This document shows, piece by piece, positions 2,201 through 40,810 of a DNA stretch of 41,145 nucleotides (position 1 is the first letter of the stretch; each line of letters begins with the position of its first letter). The notes below the pieces were generated by a model that was not told where the DNA came from, searched no databases, and saw only the letters and a program-made list of their open reading frames with translations. The DNA comes from an uncultured Candidatus Saccharibacteria bacterium. Its GTDB lineage: Bacteria > Patescibacteriota > Minisyncoccia > Phycocordibacterales > UBA9973. Where the stretch lies: NCBI GenBank assembly GCA_964366465.1, contig CAYITR010000001.1:1-41145 (forward strand). Direction: 5' to 3'. A program made the translations under genes and the position numbers.

Positions 2201-2204
2201 TTTC

Positions 2205-3257: not shown

Positions 3258-3313
3258 CTGTTTAGAATAGCATTTCTACTGAATTTTTTCTACTTTTTGA
3301 ACTTTACAACTAC

Positions 3314-5062: not shown

Positions 5063-5075
5063 TTTTTTCTTTAAG

Positions 5076-5115: not shown

Positions 5116-5121
5116 TTAAAT

Positions 5122-6876: not shown

Positions 6877-6883
6877 AACTCCA

Positions 6884-6939: not shown

Positions 6940-6942
6940 TCT

Positions 6943-7872
6943 TTAAGAATTGTATAGTATATTCACTATCTTTTCCATATCAGCGAAACGGCCGTCGAAG
7001 GTGGAGCCAAGGAGGGTGACGGCTATCTCGCGCCCGCCTTTATCTTTAAATATCACCACTAGGTTCCCGCCGGCGATTTCAGTAAAACCAGTTTTGGAGA
7101 AAAGCAAATTTGGGATTTTGCCTATTAAAATGTTGGTATTTTTGAAATTATGTTCGAAGCCAGATTCAGATTTTAGATTTATCTCAGGCATTGTCGTCAC
7201 GCTGAAAATTTCTGGATAAGCTTTCAGTGCATATATGGCCATAGCGTTGACGTCCTCCGCTGAAGCCACAACGCCTGCCTACGCAGGCAGGCCGACACCG
7301 ACAGGCTCCTTTTTATTTTCTAAGTACAGATCAAGCCCTGTCGGATTGGCAAAAAATGTATTAGCCGTGCCGAGTCTTTGCACTTTACTGTTAATACTTT
7401 CTAAAAAATTTTCTCTCTGTTCATACAAAGCATAAGCTCCATCGTTGGCGGAAACTATTAAGGTGAATTTGGCCAAATCCCCTATCTTCCATTTTTCATA
7501 AGCAAAAATTCCGAAATCTCCCGACTGCTTCACCGCATTTGGTGACACATAGACGATGTCATCCATCTGGTGCTCCTTTAATCCTTCGACGACGGTCATA
7601 ATTTTAGCCAGTGAAGCAATAGGTAACGCCACGTCATCGTTTTTCCCATAAATTTTTTCATTATCTGTTATGTTATAAACAGACACCGCTTGGGCTAAAA
7701 TCGGAGTTTGCTCAAGCGCATTTCTGACGCTCTCATTCCTTTCATTTTTTAATTTTGTAAATTCATGAAATTTTGAGTCGCCAATAAAAAAGAAAGTTGC
7801 TGTGAAAGCAACAACAAGTAACATAAAAAATAATATATTATTGTGCGTCTTCATCTTTGAGCGCTGTATCAA
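6943..7872 (-). pseudogene. Serine-type D-Ala-D-Ala carboxypeptidase (peptidase S11, PBP5/DacB-like) interrupted by one in-frame TAG
   Basis: Track ORFs 7279..7872 and 6943..7269 are in the same frame, separated only by TAG (plus cta 7279-7281). SxxK (ASLAKIMT), SxN (SANDGAY) and KTG (KTGFTEIAGG) motifs are split across the two pieces. Confidence 0.7.
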
Positions 7873-8374
7873 TACCCTTACTTACCTCATTGTATTCCGG
7901 CAATTCTTCCACCGACTTTATGCCCATGTATGACAAGAGCTCGAAGCTTGGCTTGTACACGTAGCGTCGGTTGTCTTTCGGGTCAGAAATTTTTTCTATA
8001 AGTCCCCGCACAGACAATGCGCGGAGGGTAAAGCTCGAATTCACCCCACGGATGAAATCAATCTCCGCCCTGCCGACTTCGTTCTTATACAAAACGATAG
8101 ACAAAGTCTCGAGCGAAGCCTTAGAAAGCTCCCTGTTTAATTCTTCTTTCCTAATGTTTTCAATAATCTCACTCATCTCTGGCGCGGTGCCGAGCGTGAC
8201 GCTACTGTCTTTCTCTACGAGCACAATTCCCCTCCCTGAGAGACTCGCTTGGAGTTTCAAAAGCGCCTCGTCTACTTCATTCGACTCCACATCGAAAATC
8301 TCGCTCAGCTTTTTACGCGACATCGGCTCTCCTTTGAAAAACAGTATCGCTTCGATTTTAGTTTCTAGATTCAT
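7838..8374 (-). CDS. scpB: Segregation and condensation protein B
   Basis: 178 aa. The N-terminus KIEAILFFKGEPMSRKKLSEI is typical of ScpB winged-helix proteins. Directly downstream of scpA. Confidence 0.85.
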   Translation of the reverse strand: MNLETKIEAILFFKGEPMSRKKLSEIFDVESNEVDEALLKLQASLSGRGIVLVEKDSSVTLGTAPEMSEIIENIRKEELNRELSKASLETLSIVLYKNEVGRAEIDFIRGVNSSFTLRALSVRGLIEKISDPKDNRRYVYKPSFELLSYMGIKSVEELPEYNEVSKGIDTALKDEDAQ

Positions 8375-8391
8375 AATTATACTTTACACTT

Positions 8392-9138
8392 TTAACTTTC
8401 TACTTGAGGAGATTGTTTTTCCAAAACAATCTCCTCGCTCCCCAGCTCCTGCACAGCGTTTAGTATACCTTGCCTGACCATTTCGAGCATAGCCAGGAAG
8501 CCGACGATGACTTCAACCTTCTCCTCCTTTGTCTTACTCTCACCTTTCTTGTGATTGGCGAAATCTCGGAAGCTCATAGTGATAGAGCTCTGAATGCGTT
8601 CAGTCAGCTTGTCGATCATTTCTTCGATACTTATAACCTTACGCACTTCCACGTTTGGCATAAATTGCTTCTTCGGCATTGCTCCGAGCACTTCCTTGGC
8701 GAAGGTCATCATACTCTCGCGGGTGATCTGGCTATCGGGTAAAAATACAACAACATCATTCCTTCTTTCCTCTGAGGCAAAAATAATATTTTTACCAAAA
8801 TTGCTTTTTATATTTAATCCCAACCTGGTGAAAAGTTCGTAGAGTCGCAACCTTTCTTCTAAATTTTTAATGTCGCCTTTTTCTTCGTCAGTTAATTCTA
8901 GATTCGGCAACAGTGATTTTGATTTAATTAAAATTAGCGTTGAAGCTACGAGGATAAAACTGGAAATCTCGTTGGGGTGAATAGCTCCCAACTTGTTCAT
9001 GTATTGCAAATAGTCTTCCGTCACTGCCGAGAGCGACACGTCGTTTATGTGTAGCTTTCGCTTCTCCACTAAGCCTAAAAGCAGGCCAAACGGCCCCTCA
9101 AACCCAGCAGTTTTTATAGTATAACTATTACTTTCCAT
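8392..9138 (-). CDS. scpA: Segregation and condensation protein A (kleisin)
   Basis: 248 aa with FEGPFGLLLGLVEKRKLHINDVSLSAVTEDYLQYM, a typical ScpA N-terminus. Extended -10 TGCTAACAT (plus 9145-9153) lies 6 nt upstream of the ATG. Confidence 0.85.
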   Translation of the reverse strand: MESNSYTIKTAGFEGPFGLLLGLVEKRKLHINDVSLSAVTEDYLQYMNKLGAIHPNEISSFILVASTLILIKSKSLLPNLELTDEEKGDIKNLEERLRLYELFTRLGLNIKSNFGKNIIFASEERRNDVVVFLPDSQITRESMMTFAKEVLGAMPKKQFMPNVEVRKVISIEEMIDKLTERIQSSITMSFRDFANHKKGESKTKEEKVEVIVGFLAMLEMVRQGILNAVQELGSEEIVLEKQSPQVES

Positions 9139-9175
9139 CCCTGTATGTTAGCACTTTTTAGAAAAAAGAGAAATG

Positions 9176-9228
9176 AAAAAAACCGCTCCTCCAGTTCGGC
9201 TTTTTCATACGAACTGCAGAAACGGTTT
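9176..9228 (-). terminator. Intrinsic terminator of the GC-rich cassette
   Basis: Minus strand reads AAACCGtttCTgCAGTTCG..CGAACTGgAGgagCGGTTTTTTT. This is an imperfect long hairpin with a CAGTTCG/CGAACTG core followed by T7. Confidence 0.65.
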
Positions 9229-9267
9229 GATGTTGTGGGGGGTCTATACTAGCACCCCCAATGACCT

Positions 9268-9597
9268 CTACTTCGCGAGAAGGGCGGGGCTGTCCCCGGG
9301 GAAGAAAACGTTTCTGAGAGGGAACCAGAGCACCCGCACTCGGCGATGGAAGACGAGGCGCTTAACCTCGCGGTCATCGCCACGACCCCGGGTCATCCCC
9401 CAGAGAACGGGGTAGATCGCCCGAAGTTCCTTCGGATAGGTCTCAGGGTGGTCGATCCACCCCCGGACCAGCGACGACTCGAGGGTGGTCTTGAACGCCT
9501 CGGGCTTCTCCTTACGGAGAAGGGCCTCAAGGGCGTGGCCACCGATGGTCATGCTCCCCTGCCAGGGAAAGAGGAAGAGCTCGTAGCCCCCCGTCAT
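9268..9597 (-). CDS. Hypothetical 109-aa protein encoded in a GC-rich island
   Basis: Strong SD GGAGGA 7 nt before the ATG. Roughly four-fifths of third codon positions are G/C by my count, in an otherwise AT-rich genome. It has its own promoter and terminator. I recognise no motif (MTGGYELFLFPWQGSMTIGGHALEALL...). Confidence 0.55.
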   Translation of the reverse strand: MTGGYELFLFPWQGSMTIGGHALEALLRKEKPEAFKTTLESSLVRGWIDHPETYPKELRAIYPVLWGMTRGRGDDREVKRLVFHRRVRVLWFPLRNVFFPGDSPALLAK

Positions 9598-9733
9598 GGC
9601 ATCATCCTCCTTTTCTGTCTTTGTCGTTCAAGCTAACCCGTGAATGGGTTTCGCCACAGCGGAGAAATCCCGATTGATTACGGGAGCTTTCTGCTATGGC
9701 GAAATTCTCAACTTTATTTGAAAGAACTTATAT
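9598..9733 (-). promoter_or_regulatory. Structured 5' UTR of the GC-rich cassette
   Basis: 11-bp stem TTCGCCATAGC / GCTGTGGCGAA (plus 9650-9660 and 9693-9703) encloses the nested hairpin AGAAAgctCCCGtaatcaatCGGGaTTTCT. A second hairpin AACCCgtgaatGGGTT lies at 9635-9650. Confidence 0.5.
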
Positions 9734-9739
9734 CTGTGT

Positions 9740-9768
9740 ATTATACACCCTTTTAGGGCAAAAGTCAA
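9740..9768 (-). promoter_or_regulatory. Near-consensus sigma70-type promoter (TTGACT-17-TATAAT)
   Basis: Minus strand reads cacTTGACTtttgccctaaaagggtgTATAATacacag. The -35 is plus 9763-9768 and the -10 is plus 9740-9745, with an exact 17-nt spacer. Confidence 0.7.
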
Positions 9769-9804
9769 GTGTAAAAAGTAGTCAAAAAAGATATACTACG
9801 CTTG

Positions 9805-12285
9805 ATGAAAATACGAAAACAGCCAAGCGTCCGATTGTCTAAAAATGTGATCCCGAAAAGCTATGAAATACAGCTTCGACCGGATCTGGAGAACTTCACT
9901 TTTGAAGGAGTAGAAACCATCCATTCTAGTATTTTGCAAAAGACTAGAACAATAACTCTGCATTCTAAAGAATTAGAAATTGAGACTGCGGAAGTCGGAC
10001 TTCCGCACGAGAAAATGTTTGCAAAGATTAATTACGATATAAAATCCGAGACAGCAACTTTTACATTCCCGAAAATTATTCAAAAAGGAGAAATAAAACT
10101 TACTTTAGTTTTCAAAGGCATACTAAATGACAAAATGCGGGGCTTCTATAAAAGCTCTTACATTTTCGACGGCAAAGTTCACCACATTGCCACCACTCAA
10201 TTTGAAGCCACAGACGCTCGCCGAGCTTTCCCCTGCTTTGACGAGCCAGCGCAGAAAGCAGTGTTCCACTTGTCGCTAATTGTACCGAAAGGCAAAAGCG
10301 TTATCTCAAATACCTTGCCCGTCTCAACCCTAAAACATGAAGCGGGTTACGAAGTTGTCAAATTCGCACCTACACCAAAGATGTCCACCTACCTCCTCGC
10401 ATTTATCGTCGGCGACTTCGAATACATCGAGAAGAGAACAAATCGTGGCGTCATCGTCCGCGTTCACACCACGGCCGGTAAGAAACACCAGGCGAAGTTT
10501 GCCCTCGACTCTGCGGTAGAAATTTTAGAATTCTATGAGAAATATTTCGACATCCCCTACCCACTCAACACTCTCGACATGATTGCCATTCCAGACTTTC
10601 AAGCTGGGGCGATGGAGAACTGGGGCGCCATAACTTATCGCGAGTCCGCACTCTTGGTGGACGACAATCATTCTTCCGCTTCCAACAAGCAATGGGTGGC
10701 GCTAGTCATCGCCCATGAGATAGCTCACCAGTGGTTCGGCAACTTGGTGACCATGGAATGGTGGACGCATTTGTGGCTCAATGAAGGCTTCGCTTCTTAC
10801 ATAGAATATTTGGCGATAGATAAACTTTTTCCAAAGTGGGACATCTGGACCCAATTCTGCACGAATGATCTCGGAGTTGCGCTCCGTTTAGATTCATTAC
10901 AAAGCACTCATCCGATAGAAATACCCGTGCATCATCCGGATGAAATTGGGGAAATTTTTGATGAAGTATCATACTCCAAGGGTGCTTCGATAATCCGCAT
11001 GCTCGCCAGTTATTTAGGTGAAAAAGATTTTCGCGACGGTTTGCGATATTATCTAAAAAAACACAGTTACAAAAACACCGAGACCCTCCACCTCTGGCAA
11101 GCATTTGAAAAAGTCTCGTGTAAGCCCGTGGTTAAAATGATGCGAACCTGGACATCAAAACCCGGCTACCCTGTAGTTAAGTTGAAAGTGGAAAGTGGAA
11201 AGTTAAAAGTCACTCAAGAAAGATTTTTTAGTAATCCTGTTTCAAAAAATAAAATAAAAGATAACACAAAATGGGAATTCCCTTTGAATTTCAAAAATAA
11301 CAAAGTAAACTTCGGTGAGGCGGGATTTTTCCGAACTGCTTATTCTAAAGAATTATTAGAGAAACTTCGCGAGCCTATTTTGAATAAAAAGTTGAGCTCG
11401 CGCGACAGGCTCGGCATCATCCGCGACCTTTTTGCCTTATCTGAAGCCGGCATAGTGCCCACTACCGATGCCCTTTCATTCTTGTCCGCATATAGAAACG
11501 AAGACAACTATACCGTCTGGCTCGAGATAGCGGGAGGCTTGGCTCGGCTAGAGCAACTCTTCCCCGAAGACGGTCTTCGGGGAAAATTAAATCAGCTTAC
11601 ATTGCAATTATTCTCGCCACTGTGCACCACTTTGGGCTGGGAAAAGAAAGCAGATGAGCCTCACACCGACACCTTACTTCGCTCGCTCGCCATCTCACGC
11701 GCAGGTCGTGCTGGTGATAAGAAAATAATTGTTAAAGCAAAAGCAAAGTTCGCCTCAAAGAATGTTCCCCCCGACATCCGCGGAGCTGTCTACGGCATAG
11801 TTGCTACACACGGTGGTCTGAAAAAATTCCGTGAATTTACCGCTAGGTACAAGAAAGAAACTTTGCATGAAGAAAAAAATCGCCTTGGTGGTATATTGGG
11901 AGATTTCAAAAATCCAAAAATTCTCAAACAAGTTTGCGAATTCGCTGTTTCTAAGCACGTCCGCCCGCAAGACACCATAGGCATCATCTCTGGAGTCGGG
12001 GTGAACCCCAACGGACGCGACATCTGGCTCGACTTTGTTATGAAAAATTGGAAAATGTTGGTCTCGCGCTACGGCGACGGCGGGCACACCCTCGCCCGAC
12101 TAGTGAAAGCCATAAGTGGAAGCGCAGAGGAAAAGCATCTTAGAATTTTCAAGCAATTCTTCACCGCCAATGAAGCCCCTGGAGCCAAAAGAAGCATCGA
12201 GCAAGTCCTCGAGCGACTCGAAGGCAACATCGCTTGGAGAAAAAGAGATGCGAAAATTATTGACGAATTTCTAAAAAAAATTTAA
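9805..12285 (+). CDS. pepN: Aminopeptidase N family (M1 zinc metallopeptidase)
   Basis: GAMENWG exopeptidase motif and HEIAHQWFGNLVTMEWWTHLWLNEGFA (HEXXH-x18-E). I prefer ATG 9805 over the track's TTG 9802. TATACT at 9792-9797 lies 7 nt upstream. Confidence 0.9.
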   Translation: MKIRKQPSVRLSKNVIPKSYEIQLRPDLENFTFEGVETIHSSILQKTRTITLHSKELEIETAEVGLPHEKMFAKINYDIKSETATFTFPKIIQKGEIKLTLVFKGILNDKMRGFYKSSYIFDGKVHHIATTQFEATDARRAFPCFDEPAQKAVFHLSLIVPKGKSVISNTLPVSTLKHEAGYEVVKFAPTPKMSTYLLAFIVGDFEYIEKRTNRGVIVRVHTTAGKKHQAKFALDSAVEILEFYEKYFDIPYPLNTLDMIAIPDFQAGAMENWGAITYRESALLVDDNHSSASNKQWVALVIAHEIAHQWFGNLVTMEWWTHLWLNEGFASYIEYLAIDKLFPKWDIWTQFCTNDLGVALRLDSLQSTHPIEIPVHHPDEIGEIFDEVSYSKGASIIRMLASYLGEKDFRDGLRYYLKKHSYKNTETLHLWQAFEKVSCKPVVKMMRTWTSKPGYPVVKLKVESGKLKVTQERFFSNPVSKNKIKDNTKWEFPLNFKNNKVNFGEAGFFRTAYSKELLEKLREPILNKKLSSRDRLGIIRDLFALSEAGIVPTTDALSFLSAYRNEDNYTVWLEIAGGLARLEQLFPEDGLRGKLNQLTLQLFSPLCTTLGWEKKADEPHTDTLLRSLAISRAGRAGDKKIIVKAKAKFASKNVPPDIRGAVYGIVATHGGLKKFREFTARYKKETLHEEKNRLGGILGDFKNPKILKQVCEFAVSKHVRPQDTIGIISGVGVNPNGRDIWLDFVMKNWKMLVSRYGDGGHTLARLVKAISGSAEEKHLRIFKQFFTANEAPGAKRSIEQVLERLEGNIAWRKRDAKIIDEFLKKI

Positions 12286-12292
12286 TAAAAAT

Positions 12293-13228
12293 TTACCTCC
12301 ATTCAAAGTTTCCTCCGAAATGCCCCCACTTGCATGTGTCGGCAAATTTCACTTCATCTAGTTTTAAGTATTCTCGAATTCCTTTCGGACTCAAATTATA
12401 CCCCGCTATTTCTTCCTCGACACCGTCCACCACAGCCACAGCCATAACGGGCTCGCTCTTGCCGATAGCGTAGGCAAGCTTAGTATAAACTTCTTTAGCC
12501 TTACGCTTCTCTAGGAGCTCCACGGCAATCCTGCGAGCCATGTAGGCGCCAGATCTATCCACTTTAGTATAATCTTTGCCCGAAAAGGATCCGCCTCCAA
12601 TAGGCACTTCTGGGCCATAATTATCAACGATTAATTTCCTGCCCGAGAGGCCAGTATCGGCATCAAACCCGCCCATAGTCCACTCACCTGCCGGGTTAAT
12701 AAGATACTCGTTCGCCTGAATTAAACTCTGCACAAGTTTCAAAAGTTCTGCATTTTTTGTATTTTGGAAACTGGCCACCACTGTTTTCACAATGCCCCCT
12801 TCTACCGTCACTTGAGTCTTCCCATCGTATGGATACACTGCGTAAATTTTCTTACAAAGGTCACGAGCCAACATATATTCGAGCGGTAAATATTCTTTAG
12901 TCTCGGATGTGGCATAGCCTTTCATAATTCCCTGGTCTCCCGCGCCACCAGTATCTACCCCACGCGCAATTTCCGGACTCTGTAAAACAATATTGGAAAT
13001 AATTTTATAATCTTGCCCAACAATATTTTTTACCAAAGATTCAATGTCGGGTTTAGCCAGAGAAGTCACCTCGCCATTTATGGTAATTAAATTGTGTCCA
13101 CCCATCACTTCCACCGCCACTCGGCTTTTTTTGTCGCCTGCAAGATACACGTCTAAAATACTGTCAGCAATAAAATCGCACCTTTTGTCCGGATGTCCGG
13201 GGCTCACAAATTCCGCTGTTTTTATCAT
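12293..13228 (-). CDS. metK: S-adenosylmethionine synthetase
   Basis: Motifs GHPDKRCD, GAGDQG, DGKTQVTV and GGGSFSGKDYTKVDRSGAYMARR. Start moved to ATG 13228 (MIKTAEFVSPGHPDK) because the track ORF's N-terminal 40 codons overlie the SAM riboswitch and its terminator. Confidence 0.9.
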   Translation of the reverse strand: MIKTAEFVSPGHPDKRCDFIADSILDVYLAGDKKSRVAVEVMGGHNLITINGEVTSLAKPDIESLVKNIVGQDYKIISNIVLQSPEIARGVDTGGAGDQGIMKGYATSETKEYLPLEYMLARDLCKKIYAVYPYDGKTQVTVEGGIVKTVVASFQNTKNAELLKLVQSLIQANEYLINPAGEWTMGGFDADTGLSGRKLIVDNYGPEVPIGGGSFSGKDYTKVDRSGAYMARRIAVELLEKRKAKEVYTKLAYAIGKSEPVMAVAVVDGVEEEIAGYNLSPKGIREYLKLDEVKFADTCKWGHFGGNFEWR

Positions 13229-13249
13229 AATGTTTTTAAAAATTAAAAC

Positions 13250-13380
13250 AAAAAAACCTGCCGATGCAGGAATGATATAGACTAAGTATCTTCCCCACAA
13301 AGGGCTGGATTTGGCACCTACTTTTTTAAAGGGTTGCCGGTGGTTCATTGAGCCAGTGCTCTCCCCACACTCTCGATAAT
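13250..13380 (-). promoter_or_regulatory. SAM-I (S-box) riboswitch with terminator, upstream of metK
   Basis: Minus strand reads TTATCGAGAGTGTGGGGAGAGCACTGGCTCAATGAACCACCGGCAACCC..GTAGGTGCCAAATCCAGCCC..GGGGAAGATA. This matches the S-box core (UUAUCaAGAG..GAGGGAcUGGCCCgAUGAAaCCcGGCAACC..GGUGCCAAuUCCagC..GAaAGAUa). It is followed by CCTGCatcgGCAGG plus T7. Confidence 0.85.
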
Positions 13381-13450
13381 ATATTTAATTGTATAAACAT
13401 TATACCACACACAAAACACCACAAAAAATAGTTTTCCACACCTATTCCAA

Positions 13451-18998: not shown

Positions 18999-19343
18999 TT
19001 AACACTCTTTTAAATCTTTTTCTATCTGTGCTATCAACTCTGATTCGGTTTCGAATTTCCTAAAGTCCCGTAGAAATTTCTCTGGCTTGAGGGTCACTTC
19101 TTTGCCGTAAGCATCTCCATCGTACCCGATCAAATGCGCCTCTATCTTGCGCTCGCCTTCTTTTTCGGGATTAATAATAATCCCCGCACGATATTTTTGG
19201 TTATCTAAAACAGCAGTGCCCGCATATACCCCCACTTTTATATCACTTGGACATCGGATGTCCAAGTTGACTGTGGGGAAACCGAGCTTATGACCATATC
19301 CGTCTCCTTTAACTACAATGCCAGAGATTTTAATATCCATCAC
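18999..19343 (-). CDS. Riboflavin kinase domain protein
   Basis: 114 aa. GDGYGHKLGFPTVNL..GVYAG..IEAHLIGYDGDAYGKEV..LRDFRKFETESELIAQIEKD matches the RibF C-terminal kinase domain pattern. Confidence 0.75.
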   Translation of the reverse strand: MMDIKISGIVVKGDGYGHKLGFPTVNLDIRCPSDIKVGVYAGTAVLDNQKYRAGIIINPEKEGERKIEAHLIGYDGDAYGKEVTLKPEKFLRDFRKFETESELIAQIEKDLKEC

Positions 19344-20679
19344 TATTTAGCTTCTCATCAATTCTGTTCATGTCGCGCGGGAACATCGATGCCTCACGAA
19401 CATTTTTTAGCCCTAGTAATTGCATCGTCATACGCTCTGCCCCGAAAGCAAAGCCACCTTCAGGTGGTACCCCGTATTTGAAAGCTTCAAGAAACATCTT
19501 TATTTTAGCTGGATCCATTTTCCAAATTTCAACATGCTTCATAAGTTGCTCGTAGTCGTTGATTCTTCGTCCACCAGAAAGCCATTCCACCCCTCTGCAC
19601 AGCAAGTCCATCCCTTGGTTGTATTCTGGTTCTTTTTCGTCTGGGTAAACATAAAAAGGTTTTTTACGAGTTGGATATCCGTAGATAAACACGAAGTCCG
19701 AGCCAGTTTCTTCTTTAATTATTTCACAAATTTCTCTTTCGTCTTGTGGATTGGTGTCCTTTTCTCCACGAACATCCCGCCCAAATTTTTCAAAGATCTT
19801 TTGCTGGACTTCTCGCAGTGAAAGCGTGGGAGTTTTATCTATCATAACTGGCATAGTAGCGTTCAAAATCTTCAAGTGCTCAGCATTCTTTTCTTCTACT
19901 TGTTTTAAGATAAATCGCACAGTTTCTTCCGCCATGTCACGCACATCTGTCCAGGAATCGATAAAAGCCATTTCAGCATCTAAGGAAACTATCTCAGTCA
20001 AATGTCTTGTAGTGGACGAAGGCTCTGCGCGAAAAACTTTGTTTATAGAGAAACACCTTTCAAAAGCGGACATAACTATTTGTTTATAAAGTTGCGGTGA
20101 TTGAGTTAAAAAGGCTTTTTTATCAAAATAATTAACTTGAAAAACCTCAGCTCCACCTTCAGCTGTCGCCGGAGTAATAGCTGGTGCCTGAAATTCAAAG
20201 AAATTATTCTTTTTTAAAAACTCACGAAATGAATCAATTATAGTTTCTTGTACTTTAAAGACTGCTTGCACTTTCGGTTGTCGTAAAACTAGCGCACGAT
20301 TATCGAGCTCGGTCGTTAAATCTAAGTTATAGCCATCCATAGACATATCAAAAGGTAGCGGTTCGGCTTTAGCTAAAACTTCAATACCCGTAACCTCAAG
20401 CTCCACGTCACCATTCAGCACACCCGCTTTCACATTTTTCTCAGGCCGTTTATTAACTAGGCCGGTAATTTTCAAAACCCATTCCGAACGAAACTCTTTA
20501 GCTTTTTCAATAACTTCCGCCCGTGAAGGCAGAGCCACGCACTGCACTCTGCCGCTCATGTCCCGCATATCAAAGAAGACCATTTTGCCCTGATCTCGCC
20601 TAACATCCACCCACCCAGCGATAATCACCCCCTGCCCCACATTTTCTTTTAAATCTTTGATATATATACGGTTTTTCAT
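19330..20679 (-). CDS. aspS: Aspartate--tRNA ligase, archaeal/eukaryal-type class IIb (Asp/Asn discrimination not assessable)
   Basis: 449 aa with an OB-fold N-terminus. Class II motifs FRAEPSSTTRHLTEIVSLDAEMAF, GGRRI and GFAFGAERMTMQLLGLKNVREASMFPRD. TGCTAAAAT lies 9 nt upstream of the ATG. Confidence 0.85.
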   Translation of the reverse strand: MKNRIYIKDLKENVGQGVIIAGWVDVRRDQGKMVFFDMRDMSGRVQCVALPSRAEVIEKAKEFRSEWVLKITGLVNKRPEKNVKAGVLNGDVELEVTGIEVLAKAEPLPFDMSMDGYNLDLTTELDNRALVLRQPKVQAVFKVQETIIDSFREFLKKNNFFEFQAPAITPATAEGGAEVFQVNYFDKKAFLTQSPQLYKQIVMSAFERCFSINKVFRAEPSSTTRHLTEIVSLDAEMAFIDSWTDVRDMAEETVRFILKQVEEKNAEHLKILNATMPVMIDKTPTLSLREVQQKIFEKFGRDVRGEKDTNPQDEREICEIIKEETGSDFVFIYGYPTRKKPFYVYPDEKEPEYNQGMDLLCRGVEWLSGGRRINDYEQLMKHVEIWKMDPAKIKMFLEAFKYGVPPEGGFAFGAERMTMQLLGLKNVREASMFPRDMNRIDEKLNSDGY

Positions 20680-20720
20680 CGTCTAAACATTTTAGCATAA
20701 AAATTAAAGAAAGATAGTTG

Positions 20721-21010
20721 AAAAAAGTTAGGGGGTGGCTCGCAAAACGAGCCACCCCAGTGATGCGGTGGGCCAGACCGCACTATACAGGCCCTAACAC
20801 CATTCGGGGTCCCACAGCATAAGCTCCTCCTTTTCTCAAAGAACGAATTTCTGGTGAAATAACCAAAAAGTGACGCTCTTGCGCCACTTAGTGGATTCCT
20901 TATGGATTAGGTTCTAGTTGCTAGGAACTAGATTTTAAGAAATCAACAGACAGACGCAAAAGCTAGGTGCTTCGCGCCCCGCCAAGATTTATTTGATAAC
21001 TTATATTCTT
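20721..21010 (-). ncRNA. GC-rich structured transcript(s) between trpR-like and aspS: sRNA-like 5' part plus mini-ORF leader-like 3' part (unclassified)
   Basis: Starts downstream of the operator/promoter at 21019-21042. Contains a CTAG-rich hairpin TCTAGTTcctagcAACTAGA. Terminator 1 is GUGGCGCaagaGCGUCAC plus U5 (plus 20865-20887). Then SD GGAGGA plus ATG..TAG (20820-20794, MLWDPEWC), the hairpin TGCGGTctggcccACCGCA, and terminator 2, an 11-bp stem GGGGTGGCTCG/CGAGCCACCCC plus U6 (20721-20758). Confidence 0.4.
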
Positions 21011-21018
21011 TACTCAAT

Positions 21019-21042
21019 ACTATCATACTAGTATGCTAGTAT
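21019..21042. promoter_or_regulatory. TrpR-type operator candidate (CATACTAGTATG core), site 1
   Basis: ACTATCATACTAGTATGCTAGTAT has a 12-bp perfect palindrome at 21024-21035 with CTAG boxes 8 bp apart. The 20-mer ATCATACTAGTATGCTAGTA is identical to 38705-38724. Confidence 0.6.
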
Positions 21043-21074
21043 TTAACAGAAAGAAAGTCAAGAAGGTATTTTAC

Positions 21075-21362
21075 CTAACTGTTGATAACTTTCAGGGCTC
21101 GTCTGAACCCACCTTCTTTCTTGCGCATTTCGCGAGAGCCTCGAGTGACCGTAGCTATGCCAAGGTGCAGGTCTTCAGCAATGGATTCTTGGTATTCCCC
21201 TTTTTCCAACTTCTTCACAATCTGCCAACGCACAGCAATATTTTCAAATTCATGCGGTGTCAAAATGGCTTGAATGAAATCTGCCAAGAGTTGCTTGTCT
21301 TTGGAAATTTTTGATATAACCTCTATTAACTCTTTTTTATATTGTTCAGAATTATTTTTCAT
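21075..21362 (-). CDS. trpR: Trp repressor (TrpR) family transcriptional regulator
   Basis: 95 aa. ILTPHEFENIAVRWQIVKKLEKGEYQESIAEDLHLGIATVTRGSREMRK parallels the E. coli TrpR core ([49 protein letters not shown]). Immediately downstream of trpS. Confidence 0.75.
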   Translation of the reverse strand: MKNNSEQYKKELIEVISKISKDKQLLADFIQAILTPHEFENIAVRWQIVKKLEKGEYQESIAEDLHLGIATVTRGSREMRKKEGGFRRALKVINS

Positions 21363-21386
21363 TTTTTCTTTCCTCTTTTAGAATAT

Positions 21387-21407
21387 CACCATACTAGTAT
21401 GCTGATA
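21387..21407. promoter_or_regulatory. TrpR-type operator candidate, site 2 (upstream of the trpR-like gene)
   Basis: CACCATACTAGTATGCTGATA carries the same 12-bp palindrome at 21390-21401. It overlaps the putative extended -10 TGaTATTCT of the trpR-like gene on the minus strand. Confidence 0.6.
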
Positions 21408-21417
21408 TTTGTACTGC

Positions 21418-22431
21418 TTAGTCGAAATAATCTATTTTTAGAGCCCTACGAACTTCGATCATTGTCATCTCCGCGTCTTTGCGCGCTTCTTCTATTCCCT
21501 CTTCTAAAATTTTCATTATAGCTTTTGGATCCTTGGCAAGCTGTTCCCGACGGGTGCGAATTGGTGTAATAAAATCAATCAAAACTTGAGTTAACCGCTT
21601 TTTTAATTCAGTATCTCCAAGTCCGCCTTTTTGGTATTGTGCTTTCAGCTCCACTACACCCGCCTTGTCTTCATCAAATGCATCCAAGTATGTGAAAACT
21701 ACATTACCCTCTACCTTGCCTTTGTCTTCTACGCGTATGTGCCCAGGGTCGGTATAGGCTTGTTTTACTTTTTTCTCAATTTCTTCGTCTGAGTCTGAAA
21801 GATAAATGCAGTTCCCTAGGGATTTTGACATTTTAGCATTTCCATCTATGCCAACCAATCGCGGGACATCACTCACTACTCCTGTAATTTTAGAAAACAA
21901 ATCGATATTGTAAGTTGCATTAAATTTTTTAACAATCTCGTTAGCTTGCTCGAGTACGGGCAATTGATCCACGCCGACGGGCACAGTATTGGCTTTACAG
22001 AATAAAATATCAGCAGCTTGCGAGACAGGGTAAGCCAAGAATCCAAGTGGTATACCCTTATTCATCCCCTTGTCTTTGATTTCTGTTTTGATAGTTGGAT
22101 TGTGTGATAGCTGTTCCATCGTCACCAAGTTCATAAACAAAACAGTCAGCTCGGCTATCTCTGGCACTTGCGATTGAATAAAGAAAATAGTTTTTTTAGG
22201 ATCCACGCCACAAGCTAGGTTGTCTAGCACGACTTCAAGTACATTACTCCGTACTTTTTCTGGATTGTCAGCATTGTCGGTCAAGGCTTGAATGTCTGCA
22301 ACCATACAAAAGGACTTGCTGGCTTCGTCTTGTAATTTAATCCTATTTTGAATAGAACCGACGAAATGCCCCAGGTGTAACTTACCTGTTGGCCTATCGC
22401 CCGTAAGCACTATTTTGACTTTGTTTTCCAT
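21418..22431 (-). CDS. trpS: Tryptophan--tRNA ligase
   Basis: HIGH-type GKLHLGH and KMSKS (AKMSKSLGN). Size and N-terminus (KIVLTGDRPTG) are typical of TrpRS. Start moved from the track's GTG 22458 to ATG 22431, which lies 7 nt after the extended -10 TGaTAATAT. Confidence 0.9.
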   Translation of the reverse strand: MENKVKIVLTGDRPTGKLHLGHFVGSIQNRIKLQDEASKSFCMVADIQALTDNADNPEKVRSNVLEVVLDNLACGVDPKKTIFFIQSQVPEIAELTVLFMNLVTMEQLSHNPTIKTEIKDKGMNKGIPLGFLAYPVSQAADILFCKANTVPVGVDQLPVLEQANEIVKKFNATYNIDLFSKITGVVSDVPRLVGIDGNAKMSKSLGNCIYLSDSDEEIEKKVKQAYTDPGHIRVEDKGKVEGNVVFTYLDAFDEDKAGVVELKAQYQKGGLGDTELKKRLTQVLIDFITPIRTRREQLAKDPKAIMKILEEGIEEARKDAEMTMIEVRRALKIDYFD

Positions 22432-22523
22432 AGTTTTAATATTATCATAATTTCCCACACTTTAGTAACATCATTATCAACCAAAGGGCTTTGACAAACT
22501 TTACGTTGTGCTAGAATAGCTCC

Positions 22524-34138: not shown

Positions 34139-35860
34139 CTAATACACTTCCTGTTGATAACACTTTTCGCAATATACTATCTCCGGGCGATTGGGGGCAT
34201 AGCTGGTCTCAAACTCACTTGGACATCGGATGTCCAAGTGGTTGTGGTGGGTAGATTTATCACACATACACTGTCTGTGCCAGAGCCTGGGTGGGTTAAC
34301 TTTTTTAAATCTTTCTTGGTGCCTACACTCAAAACAATTCCTTGGTAAAGGAAGATTAAATTGTTTCAAAAAACTTAATTCACTCTTAATGATTTTATAT
34401 ATACGTTTGCAAGACTCACATTCAATTAACTCATCTAAAATATCAGTACTAACATCACTAATATGATTAGGCAAATCTTGTGATTGAATGGTGGCAGTAT
34501 GTTCTGGTTTTTCTCGTTCAATATAGTTAAACCCACCTTCTAAAACATCTCTCTTGTTTAGGGGAAAATAGTCCGCTGCGACCGTTTCATTGTAGCCGAA
34601 AGGAGAAATCTCTGCTGGAAAATACTCTCCATATTTATAAATTCGTCCTTTTTTGTCCACATACGGGATATTTATCATCTGCTGTTTAATTTTCTCTACC
34701 AATTCTATATACTCTCCCTTGGAATATTGTTTATTAAAAACACAATAACTTTTATTACGAAGCCCTACACATCCAAAAATATTGTTACAACCATGGCAAT
34801 TCCAAGAATATTCCGTATTTAAGCATTCCCACACAGTTAAAACAAATAACTGCCTTGATCCATTTACACCAGAATCCATAGCTTCATAAAGTAATTCTAC
34901 AATTCCAGTACCATACCCATCATAACTATCTTTTACTTTAAACGAATTCATTAAAAATTTATCATCTTTTATATCTTCAAAGACCCCAAAACAATACTTC
35001 GAATTATTGGCATGGCTTATATCATCACCAGAGACATTTGTCGAATTTATAATATTTGCAAATCTTCTAATGGCATCCAACTTTAATTTTTCAAATTTTT
35101 CTTTTACTTTTTTAAAGTTTTCGAAATTCCCCAAATTTAATTCTTTAAATCTTTTAATGTATTCATCTTTTGTGTATTGTACATTCCACATGCAATTTGA
35201 CTTATTTCGAAGAGATGTACAACCGAAACAATTAATACAATTTTTACAATCATAAAGAAAGTAAGAACTAGTACAAGAATCGACATTTTGTGAGAAAAAA
35301 GTTTCATAACTTTTAGTAGAAGAAATATCAGCATAGCAAAATTCACAATTAGAGGTTATGTACATATCTATAGAATCCTTACAGAAATTACATCGTGATG
35401 CATATGTTATATTTTCTCCACCCCAAGACGCAGATACTAAGTATGAATTTCTAAATTCGCCAATAAAATTTCCGTAAGAAGTATTAACGCATTTACCAAT
35501 AAAAAGATTAGGTTGGGGTACCTTTTCCATGAGAGTGCGAAATTGCCCAAAGAACGGTTTTGAAAAATCATAGTCTATGCCAAATGCAATTGGATCCCAT
35601 GAATCACCCCACCATATATCTCTTTCGTAAACAGTAAATGGAGAATCTGTTGAAAAACAACTGATTAAACTCTTTCCAGTTTTTGCACACTTATTTCGGT
35701 GTAACGTACGTTCATTACGCCAAGCCATCCTACGTTGCATACGACACTCCGGACAAAACGTCGGTGGCGGAACTTTGATCTTCTCATAAAAATTAAAATC
35801 CTCCGGTTCAATTACGAAATCTTTTTTACAGTTTTGACAATTTTTTGTTTCAGGTTTCAT
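34139..35860 (-). CDS. Cys/His-rich multi-zinc-ribbon protein, paralog 3
   Basis: 573 aa with the same architecture as paralogs 1 and 2 (CQNCKKDFVIEPEDFNFYEKIKVPPPTFCPECRMQRR ... CFGCVGLRNKSYCVFNKQYSKGEY ... CFECRHQERF ... CMCDKSTHHNHLDIRCPSEFETSYAPNRPEIVYCEKCYQQEVY). TAAAGT lies 7 nt upstream of the ATG. Confidence 0.8.
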   Translation of the reverse strand: MKPETKNCQNCKKDFVIEPEDFNFYEKIKVPPPTFCPECRMQRRMAWRNERTLHRNKCAKTGKSLISCFSTDSPFTVYERDIWWGDSWDPIAFGIDYDFSKPFFGQFRTLMEKVPQPNLFIGKCVNTSYGNFIGEFRNSYLVSASWGGENITYASRCNFCKDSIDMYITSNCEFCYADISSTKSYETFFSQNVDSCTSSYFLYDCKNCINCFGCTSLRNKSNCMWNVQYTKDEYIKRFKELNLGNFENFKKVKEKFEKLKLDAIRRFANIINSTNVSGDDISHANNSKYCFGVFEDIKDDKFLMNSFKVKDSYDGYGTGIVELLYEAMDSGVNGSRQLFVLTVWECLNTEYSWNCHGCNNIFGCVGLRNKSYCVFNKQYSKGEYIELVEKIKQQMINIPYVDKKGRIYKYGEYFPAEISPFGYNETVAADYFPLNKRDVLEGGFNYIEREKPEHTATIQSQDLPNHISDVSTDILDELIECESCKRIYKIIKSELSFLKQFNLPLPRNCFECRHQERFKKVNPPRLWHRQCMCDKSTHHNHLDIRCPSEFETSYAPNRPEIVYCEKCYQQEVY

Positions 35861-37669: not shown

Positions 37670-38668
37670 TTAATTAAATATTTTTTGAAACTGTTGCTCG
37701 TAATTTTTAAAATTCTTTTCCATTTCTAAAAAATTATCTATTATAGAAACTGCAAATTTCTCAGGTATTTTCTTTTTACTTGAATAATCAATGCAACATA
37801 GAGTTATACCCATAAGAACATTACAAAAAATAATTGACATTTTTTGACGCTCAAGACTTGTGAGTTTTCTTATACTATTATACCCCTTGAAAACTTCTTT
37901 GGCTTTCCTCAGATCAATTTTACCCCCATTGCAGGCAAACCACATTATAGTGTCAGCTAAATCATAGGCTAAAATACCAACGTATGAATTATCGAAATCC
38001 ACAACCCCAGAAAGGTGCCCCTTCTCAAAAAGCACGTTTTCTGGTTTTAAATCTATGTGAATTGCCCCCGTGGGGAGACCGAGAGGCATTTTATAACTCA
38101 TGTATTTAGCTCTAATGTACTCTAATGCTTTTCTTATTTTAGGATTCTTGTGGGCTTTATTCTCTTTTACAATCTTTTCAATATTTTCGTAAAACTCTGT
38201 ATAAAATTTAGTGCGTTTAACTAAAGACTTAAAATTGGTAGTTTGCAAATGCAGCTTTCCCAAAAATTCACCCACTTCAAAAAGCATTTTTTTAGTAAAA
38301 ACTTTTTTTTCATTTCCAGTGATGAAAGTATAGATAAAGCTCCTGTGTCCCTTATAATTGAAAGTGCTTTCCTCACCTCGTGTTTTAATAATCTTGGGAA
38401 TAGGTAGGTTCTTCAGGTAATTTAATAGATTTATCTCGAAATCTAATTTTTTGGAATTGTGCCTAATCGAAATTTTAAAAGTAAAATACCCTTTCGTGGT
38501 TTTAATACGATATAAACAATTAGCAAGGCCTTTTTCTAAGGGTTGATAACTTAATACTTTGCCAAGTTTAAAATATTTTAAAAGATAGTTGTCTAAATCT
38601 TTTTTATTTACTTTTGGGGCTGATAGGTAGGCCATGAATTTAAGCAACAACTGTTGCTTTCGGTACAT
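37670..38668 (-). CDS. Protein-kinase-fold phosphotransferase (APH / homoserine kinase type II / CotS-like)
   Basis: Catalytic loop IHIDLKPENVLF (HxDxxxxN) and metal-binding VVDFDNS. Confidence 0.75.
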   Translation of the reverse strand: MYRKQQLLLKFMAYLSAPKVNKKDLDNYLLKYFKLGKVLSYQPLEKGLANCLYRIKTTKGYFTFKISIRHNSKKLDFEINLLNYLKNLPIPKIIKTRGEESTFNYKGHRSFIYTFITGNEKKVFTKKMLFEVGEFLGKLHLQTTNFKSLVKRTKFYTEFYENIEKIVKENKAHKNPKIRKALEYIRAKYMSYKMPLGLPTGAIHIDLKPENVLFEKGHLSGVVDFDNSYVGILAYDLADTIMWFACNGGKIDLRKAKEVFKGYNSIRKLTSLERQKMSIIFCNVLMGITLCCIDYSSKKKIPEKFAVSIIDNFLEMEKNFKNYEQQFQKIFN

Positions 38669-38702
38669 CTAGCCACGAGAAATTTTTTGCTTCTTGTTTC
38701 AT

Positions 38703-38728
38703 ATCATCATACTAGTATGCTAGTAAGC
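38703..38728. promoter_or_regulatory. TrpR-type operator candidate, site 3 (upstream of the kinase/Cys-rich operon)
   Basis: ATCATCATACTAGTATGCTAGTAAGC has the palindrome CATACTAGTATG at 38708-38719. It lies in the 63-bp gap between the ATPase-2 stop and the kinase start. Confidence 0.6.
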
Positions 38729-38731
38729 ATC

Positions 38732-40810
38732 TTATTCTAGCAACTTCTTCAGCACATCTTCGGGCACTTCCTTGATATTATTCGAAGTAAGCGGAGGCTC
38801 CCCGCCTGCATCAGCTATGCCTAAAGCATTGCGGGCAGGTGCAACTTTTTTGATTACTTCTTTCAATTTATTCATATCTTCCGGCTTGGCGGCGCGGTCT
38901 TCATGCTTGCTGGAGGCAGGAACATGGGGCACAGATTTCGGAGGCGTATTTAAGACATTCAGGGAAACAGGCGCAGGTGTAGGCGCTGTTTCAACTTTGG
39001 GTGCAGGCGCAGGAGTGATAACAGTAACTTTCAAAGCATTATCTTTGGCCAGTGTTTTATTCAGCACTTCTTTGAGCGCGGTGTTCGATTTGACTCCTCC
39101 AGTAGGTGCGAATTTTTTGGATGTATCTACCCTCTCTACTTTGTATGGATTAGAATGCACCGGGGAACGCACTGGTTGAACTTGCTTTTTTGGTTCCTGG
39201 TGGACAGGTCGCTCCTCCACAAATTCCCCACCCGAACTCGACGGAAACTCGATACCTAGATCCGCCAGCGGTTTGAAAAACTTTGAATCGTCGTATTTAA
39301 TCTGATTTTCGGAAGTTTTTTCTACTTTAACTTCGCCGGATTTTATTTTAGCAATACACTCCTTACAGTACGCTGGTCGCCCCGGCTCTGGCTTAAACGG
39401 CACGGTTTTTTCTAGCTTACAAAGAGAACAAATAATCGGAAATTTCTCAAACGAACCCGTAACACTATTCATACTGCTTGACGAAGTATCGTCTCCAAGA
39501 GTCATCCCGCTCCAGTCGTTAATTTCTTTCTCCACCACTTCTTTTGTCCGGCAATACAGCTCTCGCGAGGATTTGATAACTTGTTGTTCAATTTCTTTAT
39601 TGCCGGACTTCACCATCTGGGGCAAGGTCTTGGCCGAGAATGGCCGTGAGGTCACGCCATCAATCATCAGCTTCAAGTAAATTTTATAGTTCGGCAAATT
39701 AACGATGTCTTGCGGGGTAAATTCTGGGTCAAATTCACTTTCCAGAAATTCGGCATCGTCCGCGCCGACACGGAAAACGATCATTGTCCCCACGTTGCCG
39801 AAAATAGCATCCCGCACTGCCGAGCTTTTGTCCACCACGAGTTGAGCGGTGTATTGGTGCGCCACGGTCAAGTTCAAGCGATATTTGCGAGCCTCCGAGA
39901 GGATTCCAGCGAAGGCGTCAGTCACGAAGTTCTGGAATTCGTCCACATATAGGTAGAAGTCACGTCTGGCTTCCTCGGGAATGCGCACACGCTCCATGGC
40001 CGCGAGCTGAATTTTGGTGATGATCATCCCTCCGAGTAACGCGGAATTGTCCTCGCCAATACGCCCCTTGGACACGTTGACTAAGAAAATTTTACCCTCG
40101 TTCATCATATCGAAAACATTAATCGTGCTTTTCGACTGACCGACGACGTTGCGGATTATAGAAGTGGAGAGGAATTGTCCAACTTTGTTTTGAATCGGAG
40201 CGATAGCTTCGTTTCTGAATTTGTCCTGCCATGCCTCATATTCATGCACCCAGAAAGCCTTAATCACCGGATCTTTCAGATTGGAAATAATTTTCTGGCG
40301 GTAATCCTTGTCCACCAGCATTCGCGGGATACCGAGGAGCGTGGTGCCAGGTGTATCGAGCAAGGCTAAAATACAATTGTTCAAAATGTATTCCATTCTA
40401 GCGCTCCAAGCATTCGCCCAAATTTTCGTAAATATTCCCATTAAGCCCGAGGCCACCAAGTGCTTGTATTGCGGATCCACCAGCTCGAGCACGTTGAAGC
40501 CGATGTGGTGGTCGGCATCGGCGGGGTTGAAATAAATCACATCTTTCATTCGATGTGGTGGAATAGCTGAGAGCACGCTCTCAACATTTTCTCCGTGTGG
40601 GTCAACAAGGCAAACCCCCTCGCCGTTTTGAATGTTCTGAATAATCATATTGAACATCAGCACGGATTTACCTGTGCCGGACTTTCCGAGCACATAAACA
40701 TGCTGGCGCCTGTCTTTGCGCTTGATGCCAAAAAGGGTGTTCTTGTCCCGATAAGTGGTTATGCCAAGATAAGTAAGTTCTTTATTGAACGGCACCTGAA
40801 ATTCTTCCAT
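38732..40810 (-). CDS. Soluble VirD4/TraD (T4CP)-like P-loop ATPase, paralog 2, with C-terminal CxxC-x17-CxxC zinc ribbon and Pro/Ala-rich tail
   Basis: FGIKRKDRRQHVYVLGKSGTGKSV (Walker A), LVDPHGE, FYLYVDEFQN, LTVAHQY. CSLCKLEKTVPFKPEPGRPAYCKEC spans aa 461-485 (nt 39356-39430). Extended -10 TGtTATAAT lies 7 nt upstream of the ATG. Confidence 0.75.
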   Translation of the reverse strand: MEEFQVPFNKELTYLGITTYRDKNTLFGIKRKDRRQHVYVLGKSGTGKSVLMFNMIIQNIQNGEGVCLVDPHGENVESVLSAIPPHRMKDVIYFNPADADHHIGFNVLELVDPQYKHLVASGLMGIFTKIWANAWSARMEYILNNCILALLDTPGTTLLGIPRMLVDKDYRQKIISNLKDPVIKAFWVHEYEAWQDKFRNEAIAPIQNKVGQFLSTSIIRNVVGQSKSTINVFDMMNEGKIFLVNVSKGRIGEDNSALLGGMIITKIQLAAMERVRIPEEARRDFYLYVDEFQNFVTDAFAGILSEARKYRLNLTVAHQYTAQLVVDKSSAVRDAIFGNVGTMIVFRVGADDAEFLESEFDPEFTPQDIVNLPNYKIYLKLMIDGVTSRPFSAKTLPQMVKSGNKEIEQQVIKSSRELYCRTKEVVEKEINDWSGMTLGDDTSSSSMNSVTGSFEKFPIICSLCKLEKTVPFKPEPGRPAYCKECIAKIKSGEVKVEKTSENQIKYDDSKFFKPLADLGIEFPSSSGGEFVEERPVHQEPKKQVQPVRSPVHSNPYKVERVDTSKKFAPTGGVKSNTALKEVLNKTLAKDNALKVTVITPAPAPKVETAPTPAPVSLNVLNTPPKSVPHVPASSKHEDRAAKPEDMNKLKEVIKKVAPARNALGIADAGGEPPLTSNNIKEVPEDVLKKLLE

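Follow-up and report, generated by a model that had tools for sequence, protein, structure and literature searches.

Predicted TrpR-type operators and a tryptophan leader-peptide attenuator beside a trpR-family gene in Patescibacteria

Introduction

What is left for a tryptophan repressor to control where no gene for tryptophan synthesis is found? This question is raised by a stretch of 41,145 nt from an uncultured Candidatus Saccharibacteria bacterium of the Patescibacteria (contig CAYITR010000001.1, assembly GCA_964366465.1), the whole of which is referred to here as the window. A gene for a TrpR-family protein of 95 amino acids (aa), denoted trpR, lies between trpS and aspS on its minus strand, and one 12-bp palindrome occurs before trpR, behind it and near a distant kinase gene. 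In a preliminary description of this DNA, the palindromes were proposed to be operators of the adjacent TrpR-family protein, and this proposal was evaluated by comparison with related genomes. To our knowledge, gene regulation in the candidate phyla radiation (CPR) is almost wholly unknown, and no member is genetically tractable. The proposal finds good support, of a comparative kind, and we consider it highly probable that both parts of the answer hold together, i.e., that the sites are TrpR operators and that the structured RNA behind one of them is a tryptophan attenuator.

Operator sites and the TrpR-family repressor

The palindrome CATACTAGTATG was found at 21024-21035, 21390-21401 and 38708-38719, as described before. 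Three copies in the window stood against none in 100 dinucleotide-preserving shuffles of it. The 20-mer ATCATACTAGTATGCTAGTA was confirmed to be common to sites 1 and 3, and TACTAGnnnnCTAGTA, in which the CTAG boxes stand 8 bp apart, was present in the window only at these two sites. The tetranucleotide CTAG was itself depleted (81 observed vs approximately 151 expected). With an operator weight matrix of 30 nt and 34.7 bits, built from 50 sites of related genomes, sites 1, 2 and 3 scored 42.8, 40.0 and 34.9 bits, respectively, and no further position in the 41-kb window reached 8 bits. In all three cases, the best strand was the minus strand, i.e., the direction of the downstream genes. A half-match had also been noted in a promoter at 40882-40910; the 9-mer AGTATGCTA is present at 40898, but it scored below 8 bits on the matrix and is not a site. 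The sites and the repressor gene are as follows.

21015..21044, minus strand: operator site 1, boxes CTAG, CTAG and ATAG at 8-bp spacing, core palindrome 21024-21035
21381..21410, minus strand: operator site 2, boxes TCAC, CTAG and CTGA
38699..38728, minus strand: operator site 3, boxes CTAG, CTAG and ATGA in minus-strand reading
21362..21075, minus strand: TrpR-family repressor gene, 95 aa, PF01371

Site 2 starts 8 nt past the trpS stop; from the end of its core to the trpR ATG there are 28 nt. Site 1 had been placed in a promoter spacer; instead, it covers both the -10 hexamer TAGCAT (21038..21033) and, at 21026..21024, the ATG, where the transcription start is predicted. The remaining assignments, with site 2 before trpR, site 1 before a GC-rich transcript and site 3 before the kinase and cysteine-rich (Cys-rich) genes, were supported, as was the likeness of the CTAG boxes and their 8-bp register to the E. 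coli trp operator. The sites thus combine what marks a TrpR-family operator, namely, CTAG/ACTAGT boxes, an 8-bp register and overlap with a promoter.

The conservation of the motif, which had also been proposed as a check, was determined in 36 genome loci of related Nomurabacteria (543 kb). The motif was found beside trpR in all 36, located 40-140 nt past the gene with the consensus cTTGCTTTT-N-TATACTAGCATACTAGTATGATGATATT. In about 15 loci, a 26-bp palindrome of the site 2 type, ATATCAGCrTACTAGTATGCTGATAT, lay between trpS and trpR. All sites of at least 14 bits in the 543 kb flanked trpR, except two within the same locus, and the closest relatives, L161 and L162, whose TrpR is 88-89% identical to that of the window, kept both operator types together with the attenuator described below. 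A metagenome scan with the exact core 16-mer CTAGCATACTAGTATG returned at least 120 contigs. Among the 120 contigs listed, a TrpR-family gene lay within 600 nt of the 16-mer in 48; it was upstream on the same strand in 38 and divergent in 8, while in 1 the operator ATG was the start codon of the TrpR-family gene. The 8 divergent genes were only 40-53% identical and therefore belong to other lineages, to which the linkage thus extends. Many GC-rich matches to the 16-mer are probably due to chance, which is to be expected because the collection holds roughly 10^12 bases by our estimate. In the literature searched, no relevant account of TrpR or of attenuation was found for Patescibacteria or Nomurabacteria.

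The 95-aa protein matched Pfam PF01371 (Trp_repressor) with 60 bits (cut-off, 27) over residues 10-91 of 95, and its homologs, 62-92% identical, come from Candidatus Nomurabacteria and related Patescibacteria; the window itself was assigned to Candidatus Nomurabacteria in this comparison. Its recognition helix reads GIATVTRGS, compared with GIATITRGS in E. coli TrpR. In the alignment, T44, P45, R54, I57, V58, I79, A80, T81, T83, R84, G85 and S86 are identical to E. coli TrpR, and these positions are invariant or nearly so among 20 homologs; T44, R54, T81, R84 and G85, the equivalents of the core tryptophan pocket, are invariant in all 20. The protein thus retains both the recognition helix of the TrpR helix-turn-helix and the tryptophan-pocket residues. 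The repressor that would act at these sites was identified because of this helix and pocket, the E. coli-like architecture of the operator and the linkage of the 16-mer to TrpR genes.

Leader promoter, leader peptide and attenuator RNA

Around and behind site 1, the following elements were recognized.

21056..21061, minus strand: -35 hexamer TTGACT of the tryptophan-leader promoter, 17-bp spacer to TAGCAT
21026..20943, minus strand: leader peptide A, MIVLSKEYKLSNKSWRGAKHLAFASVC and a stop codon, 27 codons, its ATG being the last three bases of the palindrome
20863..20984, minus strand: attenuator A RNA, segments 1-4 and the P2 hairpin

The layout of the promoter was the same in 37 loci: TTGCTT or TTGACT, 17 bp, TAGCAT or TATCAT, ACTAGT and ATG. 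This fixed geometry puts the expected transcription start on the first base of the ATG with which the palindrome closes, and the leader mRNA is therefore probably leaderless. In leader peptide A, the Trp codon is located at 20984..20982 and the TGA stop at 20945..20943. The frame from the operator ATG was open through WW or WR in 35 of the 37 loci (WW in 26, WR in 8), and UGG stood in frame, in segment 1, in all loci with the attenuator RNA. The leader open reading frame (ORF) had a median length of 31 codons, compared with 3 open codons in the other frames. The spacer between ATG and Trp codon is rich in AT and varies strongly; it occurs in 21 different lengths, every one of them in frame, and a shuffled spacer was free of stops with a median probability of 0.18. 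Moreover, the operator ATG starts a full-length protein of the Asp/Glu-racemase family in the metagenome contigs L135, L141 and L156, and it is the start codon of trpR itself in L021; it is therefore taken to be a working start codon. A leader frame from the NTG before GUGGGG was rejected, as it is without Trp codons and has stops directly upstream. UGGUGG was no longer taken as tRNA- or T-box-like once the frame from ATG to UGG proved open in all loci.

Several proteins starting at the motif ATG, and the presence inside the motif of a plausible -10 hexamer with a start codon at a constant distance, would also be seen if the motif were only a strong promoter and leaderless-start module, with no repressor or a regulator other than TrpR and with its palindromic look as a by-product. 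This explanation is considered very unlikely. The symmetry exceeds the needs of a promoter, as the 26-bp palindromes of the site 2 type demonstrate, and other promoters in the same genomes differ, that of aspS being TGCTAAAAT. Moreover, the motif tracks TrpR-family genes across unrelated arrangements and mirrors the E. coli trp operator, while the recognition helices are nearly identical. A TrpR operator that overlaps the promoter and contains the start codon is the preferred reading of site 1.

In attenuator A, segment 1 is UGGCGGGGCGCGAAGC and segment 2 is GCUUUUGCGUC (20963..20953). The P2 hairpin, GAUUUCUU/AAGGAAUC in the window and with a variable loop, is located between segments 2 and 3, and segments 3 and 4 form the intrinsic terminator A (20889..20868 plus a U-run). 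In the relatives, segment 1, UGGUGGGGCGCAGAGC, carries the Trp codons at its 5' edge and pairs with segment 2, GCUUUUGCGCY; the alternative partner of segment 2 is segment 3, GGCGCAAnnAGC, which is the 5' arm and loop of the intrinsic terminator, segment 4 being its 3' arm. In an alignment of 22 sequences, 92.7% of the paired positions were satisfied in the terminated form (1:2, P2 and 3:4) and 95.4% in the antiterminated form (2:3 and P2), while pairing with slid partners fell to 33-52%. Compensatory changes, shared by the alternative helices, tied alignment column 48 to columns 14 and 119; column 119 was in turn tied to 136. The RNA thus has mutually exclusive 1:2, 2:3 and 3:4 helices and an intrinsic terminator. 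When the window RNA was folded without a ribosome, the terminator formed; with the ribosome footprint masked at UGG, the 2:3 antiterminator formed and the terminator was lost, and with the footprint masked at the stop codon, the terminator returned. A search of 20500-21500 against Rfam (gathering thresholds and E up to 10) gave no relevant match, including T-box and Trp_leader. The RNA would work like trpL, yet it is not a sequence member of the Rfam Trp_leader family.

The preliminary description had reported a GC-rich RNA upstream of aspS. The operator-preceded transcript was upheld; its RNA is now read as a tryptophan leader-peptide attenuator, with its start codon inside the operator, that is not specific to aspS. 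Site 1 very probably carries both a TrpR operator and the start codon of a Trp-sensing leader peptide, a two-layer control as in E. coli.

Neighboring genes and the target of the attenuator

On the minus strand, the order is trpS, site 2, trpR, site 1, the structured RNA, aspS, a flavokinase gene and an EamA transporter gene. The features around the repressor gene and the attenuator are listed here.

22458..21418, minus strand: trpS (tryptophanyl-tRNA synthetase; TIGR00233, 262 bits), directly upstream of trpR
20820..20794, minus strand: second mini-ORF, MLWDPEWC and a stop codon, Trp-containing, with a strong Shine-Dalgarno sequence
20758..20732, minus strand: intrinsic terminator B, 9 G-C pairs in a stem of 12 bp, followed by a U-run
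20689..20697, minus strand: extended -10 element of aspS, 9 nt before its ATG (20679)
20679..19330, minus strand: aspS, non-discriminating type

Between the attenuator and aspS, the relatives carry an island of variable gene content, which includes trpB and trpA in nine loci, trpE and trpG in another three and PRPP synthetase in some; DAHP synthase and other aromatic-pathway genes were found nearby, in the island of L016 and between trpS and trpR in L005. In the relatives, the operator and leader are thus followed by trpBA or trpEG, while in the window only trpS adjoins. The extended -10 promoter of aspS sits downstream of both terminators and is conserved before aspS in most related loci. Since aspS is served by a promoter of its own, neither the operator nor the attenuator is a regulator specific to it. 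The lack of trp biosynthesis genes in the window, noted at first, was confirmed, but trpS, which had been overlooked, lies directly upstream of trpR, and the same operator and leader precede trpBA or trpEG elsewhere. In this genome, the operator and attenuator look like a retained orphan, as judged from the gene order.

Alternatively, the transcript from site 1 could be kept for an action of the terminated attenuator RNA or of the peptide in trans, rather than for the control of downstream genes. Despite the absence of the trp island, the operator, leader ORF, P1, P2 and terminator have stayed intact, and L161 and L162 likewise have only small ORFs behind the attenuator. A precedent is given by rnTrpL and peTrpL of Sinorhizobium meliloti, an attenuator RNA and a peptide acting in trans (PMC6614838, PMC7298713). 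However, an intact attenuator could merely reflect a recent gene loss, and read-through into the second attenuator and the aspS-flavokinase-EamA genes could still occur. Accordingly, an action in trans is considered unlikely, and an orphan of cis control is preferred.

Several points weigh against the reading of the locus as a TrpR operator and attenuator circuit. The protein scored 50.5 bits on TIGR01321 (TrpR equivalog, NCBIfam; cut-off, 67.25), and the equivalents of E. coli R69, K72 and S88 are changed to E59, A62 and E78. The AlphaFold monomer, with six helices, has low confidence (mean pLDDT, 65.7), and a Foldseek search of the PDB with it gave no meaningful match, which is expected because the query is the monomer of an intertwined dimer. 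The leader of the window belongs to the WR cases and has one Trp codon (UGG CGG), not two. No antiterminator was found by folding for the second mini-ORF. With the gene island absent and aspS under its own promoter, the attenuator has no evident target in the window. Finally, the evidence for TrpR operators is comparative throughout.

Regarding the protein, the score on TIGR02531 (YerC/YecD) was 19.9 bits against a cut-off of 42.2, and by these scores it is closer to true TrpR than to YerC/YecD. As both scores fall below their cut-offs, it is filed as a member of the TrpR family, not as a proven ortholog. A ligand other than L-tryptophan, or none, would be in line with the score below the equivalog cut-off and with three changes next to the pocket relative to E. 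coli (N40 to Q, L41 to A and S88 to E). However, the core pocket equivalents are invariant, and the genes regulated in relatives would be trpBA and trpEG behind a Trp-codon leader, so that such a ligand is highly improbable and L-tryptophan is retained as the likely co-repressor.

Further observations concern the neighboring genes. trpS has no operator of its own. The arrangement of dnaB and trpS-trpR on opposite strands is kept in all 36 related loci, with dnaB missing only at contig ends. The trpS slot before trpR (L001-L036) is filled by two very different types, 33-39% and 69-85% identical to the window enzyme, which suggests that a foreign copy replaced the gene at a fixed locus. A DnaA box that fits the consensus perfectly, TTATCCACA, is conserved in L004, L007, L008, L010, L012 and most other loci in the gap from the trpR stop to the -35 of the trp promoter, often after a GC-rich hairpin; it is not in the window, where the gap between trpR and the promoter is approximately 15 nt. 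In the operator-controlled island, a gene of the Asp/Glu/hydantoin-racemase family recurs in L135, L141 and L156, where it is fused in frame to the operator ATG, and also in L003 and L131; its product might be a racemase related to aromatic amino acids. The aspS mRNA would be nearly leaderless because the extended -10 element stands approximately 9 nt before the ATG; in L020 and L034, a T-box-like sequence, AGGGTGGTACCGCG, takes its place ahead of aspS.

In the case of the second mini-ORF, a classical attenuator was rejected, since masked folding kept the terminator in every state. The mini-ORF and the pseudoknot-like motif behind it are conserved in L161, where the peptide is MLWDWEEEWH. The motif, UAGGGCY..GCGG..GCCCACCGC, lies at 20762-20796 (minus strand) in the window and was also found in L161 at 8733 and 9470 and in L017, L020, L001 and L002. 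It directly follows Trp-containing mini-ORFs (MLWDPEWC in the window, the peptide of L161 and MGWSSLDDWWCLGL in L020) and precedes the terminator, and no Rfam match to it was obtained.

Site 3, the kinase and the Cys-rich genes

The third operator faces two kinds of genes, which are listed below.

38635..37670, minus strand: APH-family kinase related to type II homoserine kinase, start MAYLSAPK at 38635 by homology
35903-37669, minus strand: Cys-rich paralog of approximately 580 aa, downstream of the kinase
34139-35860, minus strand: Cys-rich paralog of approximately 580 aa, downstream of the kinase

Flanked by a VirD4-like ATPase gene (40810..38732) and the kinase gene, site 3 occupies an intergenic gap of approximately 96 nt. 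It starts 4 nt past the VirD4-like stop, and 75 nt separate it from the kinase start. That an operator precedes the kinase/Cys-rich operon had been claimed in the preliminary description; the strong match was verified, while the comparison gave a divided answer. Site 3 may be bound by TrpR with little or no regulatory effect, as a recent or decaying site, the real regulon consisting of trpR and the orphan leader. No operator was found at four loci with kinase relatives of 49-54% identity (L037-L040), two of which keep the linkage to the ~580-aa proteins, and no extra operator site was found in five loci with Cys-rich paralogs (L006, L007, L020, L021 and L027). The -35 element at site 3 is poor (TTGCTA with a 15-bp spacer), and a metagenome scan with the kinase protein alone gave no close relative.

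However, site 3 is a three-box site of 34.9 bits that faces the downstream genes from a short gap. It is identical to site 1 over the 20-nt operator only, and this identity breaks off precisely at the edges of the operator, which speaks for selection acting on the site and against a copied segment. In addition, L103, a contig syntenic with 1100-12285 of the window, has an independent operator of 42 bits, with scpB on one side and a Cys-rich paralog on the other; the paralog ATG follows at a distance of 10 nt. The link between TrpR and Cys-rich genes, as traced by operator positions, recurs yet is evolutionarily labile. A site without real effect is thus a serious possibility, although it falls somewhat short of even, and the chance that site 3 does have a regulatory effect is put at even at best. 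The predicted wiring of the kinase and Cys-rich genes to TrpR is carried forward at that strength.

The Cys-rich genes of the window form a set of four ~580-aa paralogs with approximately 6% Cys, all on the minus strand (3314-5062, 5122-6876, 34139-35860 and 35903-37669), which share the N-terminus NxxCQNCKxDFxIExxDFxFYEKIKVPPPTFCPxCR. Searches against Pfam, NCBIfam and PDB gave only sub-threshold matches to treble-clef zinc fingers. The VirD4-like ATPase (38732-40810) carries a treble-clef zinc finger, PF23477, and in relatives Cys-rich genes stand beside VirD4-like genes (L006, L007, L021 and L027) or APH kinases (L037 and L039).

The 5' region of the kinase (38635-38710, minus strand) lacks a Shine-Dalgarno sequence and shows a chain of coupled mini-ORFs. 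The operator ATG opens MMI, whose TGA overlaps the ATG of a 20-codon ORF, MKQEAKNFSWLDVPKATVVA, and this ORF stops 4 nt before the kinase ATG. A perfect three-box palindrome of 34 nt, CCATATACTAGCATACTAGTATGCTAGTATATGG, was observed in L042, L073 and L105 from sample Ga0310122 (GC content about 0.5), at unrelated loci of another organism; L066 from the same sample has a near-identical version with one symmetric change, and one copy of this type lies approximately 290 nt past a VirD4-like gene. Such a recurrent palindrome could point to a larger TrpR-type regulon or to a repeat element.

Elsewhere in the window, an S-adenosylmethionine (SAM) riboswitch was found at 13283-13382 on the minus strand (RF00162, 64.6 bits). 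It overlaps the annotated 5' end of a 351-aa ORF (12293-13348), the true start of which is probably further downstream than annotated.

Proposed mechanism and significance

In the most likely mechanism, the 95-aa repressor together with L-tryptophan would bind as tandem dimers to three-box arrays at 8-bp spacing, with the invariant ACTAGT at the array center. The array would be part of a fixed module, in which -35 TTGMYT and 17 bp are followed by -10 TAGCAT in the first box, ACTAGT in the second box and ATG; because of this position, the bound repressor would cover the -10 hexamer and the transcription start. Because the start is predicted on the A of the operator ATG, leaderless transcripts would result. 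At site 1, a ribosome stalled at the Trp codon by a shortage of Trp-tRNA would free segment 2 for segment 3, and the 2:3 antiterminator would allow transcription to read through; a ribosome at the stop codon, which lies just past segment 2, would let the 3:4 terminator form. In relatives, the module would drive trpBA or trpEG, while here it would be an orphan operator and attenuator, followed by the second mini-ORF with its terminator and then by aspS. Site 2 would serve the autoregulation of trpR, and through site 3 the repressor would also govern the kinase gene and two Cys-rich genes, as a lineage-specific wiring.

A bolder proposal, which we regard as rather doubtful, is that after the loss of tryptophan synthesis in some Nomurabacteria, TrpR and orphan attenuators may have become a sensor of external, possibly host, tryptophan that is rewired to CPR-specific genes, namely, those of the kinase and of the Cys-rich proteins that occur next to a VirD4-like ATPase, with the leader RNA or peptide possibly acting in trans.

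The locus offers a complete circuit predicted from sequence, which comprises a repressor, an operator grammar, a promoter, a leader peptide whose mRNA is probably leaderless and an attenuator with covarying helices. The circuit is backed by dozens of independent genomes and is directly testable in vitro with the 95-aa protein and short DNAs. It also shows in compact form how a start codon can sit inside an operator. Moreover, it gives a handle on how tryptophan-auxotrophic episymbionts sense their supply, and on the role of the abundant Cys-rich paralogs.

Comparison with known systems

The closest known system is the trp control region of E. coli, in which a TrpR operator of ACTAG boxes in 8-bp register (structures PDB 1TRO and 1TRR) is combined with the trpL attenuator. 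The repressors belong to the same Pfam family and have nearly identical recognition helices, and the CTAG boxes stand 8 bp apart in both (ATACTAGnnnnCTAGTAT here, GTACTAGTTAACTAGTAC in E. coli). In both, the operator lies over the -10 hexamer and the start site, and trpR is autoregulated, which is a prediction in the present case. Tandem Trp codons open segment 1 (UGGUGGGGCGCA in most relatives, UGGUGGCGCAC in E. coli), and the 1:2, 2:3 and 3:4 pairings are mutually exclusive.

Unlike E. coli, the present system belongs to the phylum Patescibacteria, and its leader start codon lies inside the operator, with a predicted leaderless mRNA that has no Shine-Dalgarno sequence. The leader stop is located past segment 2, whereas it lies between segments 1 and 2 in E. 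coli, and a P2 hairpin with a variable loop is inserted between segments 2 and 3. The half-site is ATACT instead of GTACT, and the equivalent of R69 is Glu. Furthermore, the RNA has no Rfam Trp_leader match, no trp genes follow it in this genome, and an extra site precedes the kinase/Cys-rich operon. TrpR and attenuation are usually described together in Gammaproteobacteria, and TrpR also occurs in Chlamydiae. The present finding would thus extend the E. coli-style combination to a distant phylum.

In Chlamydia, TrpR is found with the trpRBA operon. Similar to Chlamydia, a TrpR-family repressor of a reduced, host-dependent bacterium stands beside the genes that it would control, and a partial pathway, trpBA, would lie under TrpR in nine related loci. 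Unlike Chlamydia, trpR follows trpS rather than standing ahead of trpBA, and a classical terminator/antiterminator leader is present. The YerC/YecD proteins (TIGR02531) are likewise small and of the same Pfam family, but the window protein falls well below their cut-off.

Mycobacterial polycysteine leaderless short ORFs represent the leaderless short-ORF attenuators of Actinobacteria (bioRxiv 10.1101/834739). As in those attenuators, the leader peptide of a leaderless mRNA would sense one amino acid and control downstream genes. The present leader differs in that the amino acid would be tryptophan, the start codon lies in a repressor operator, and an intrinsic terminator with covarying alternative helices follows.

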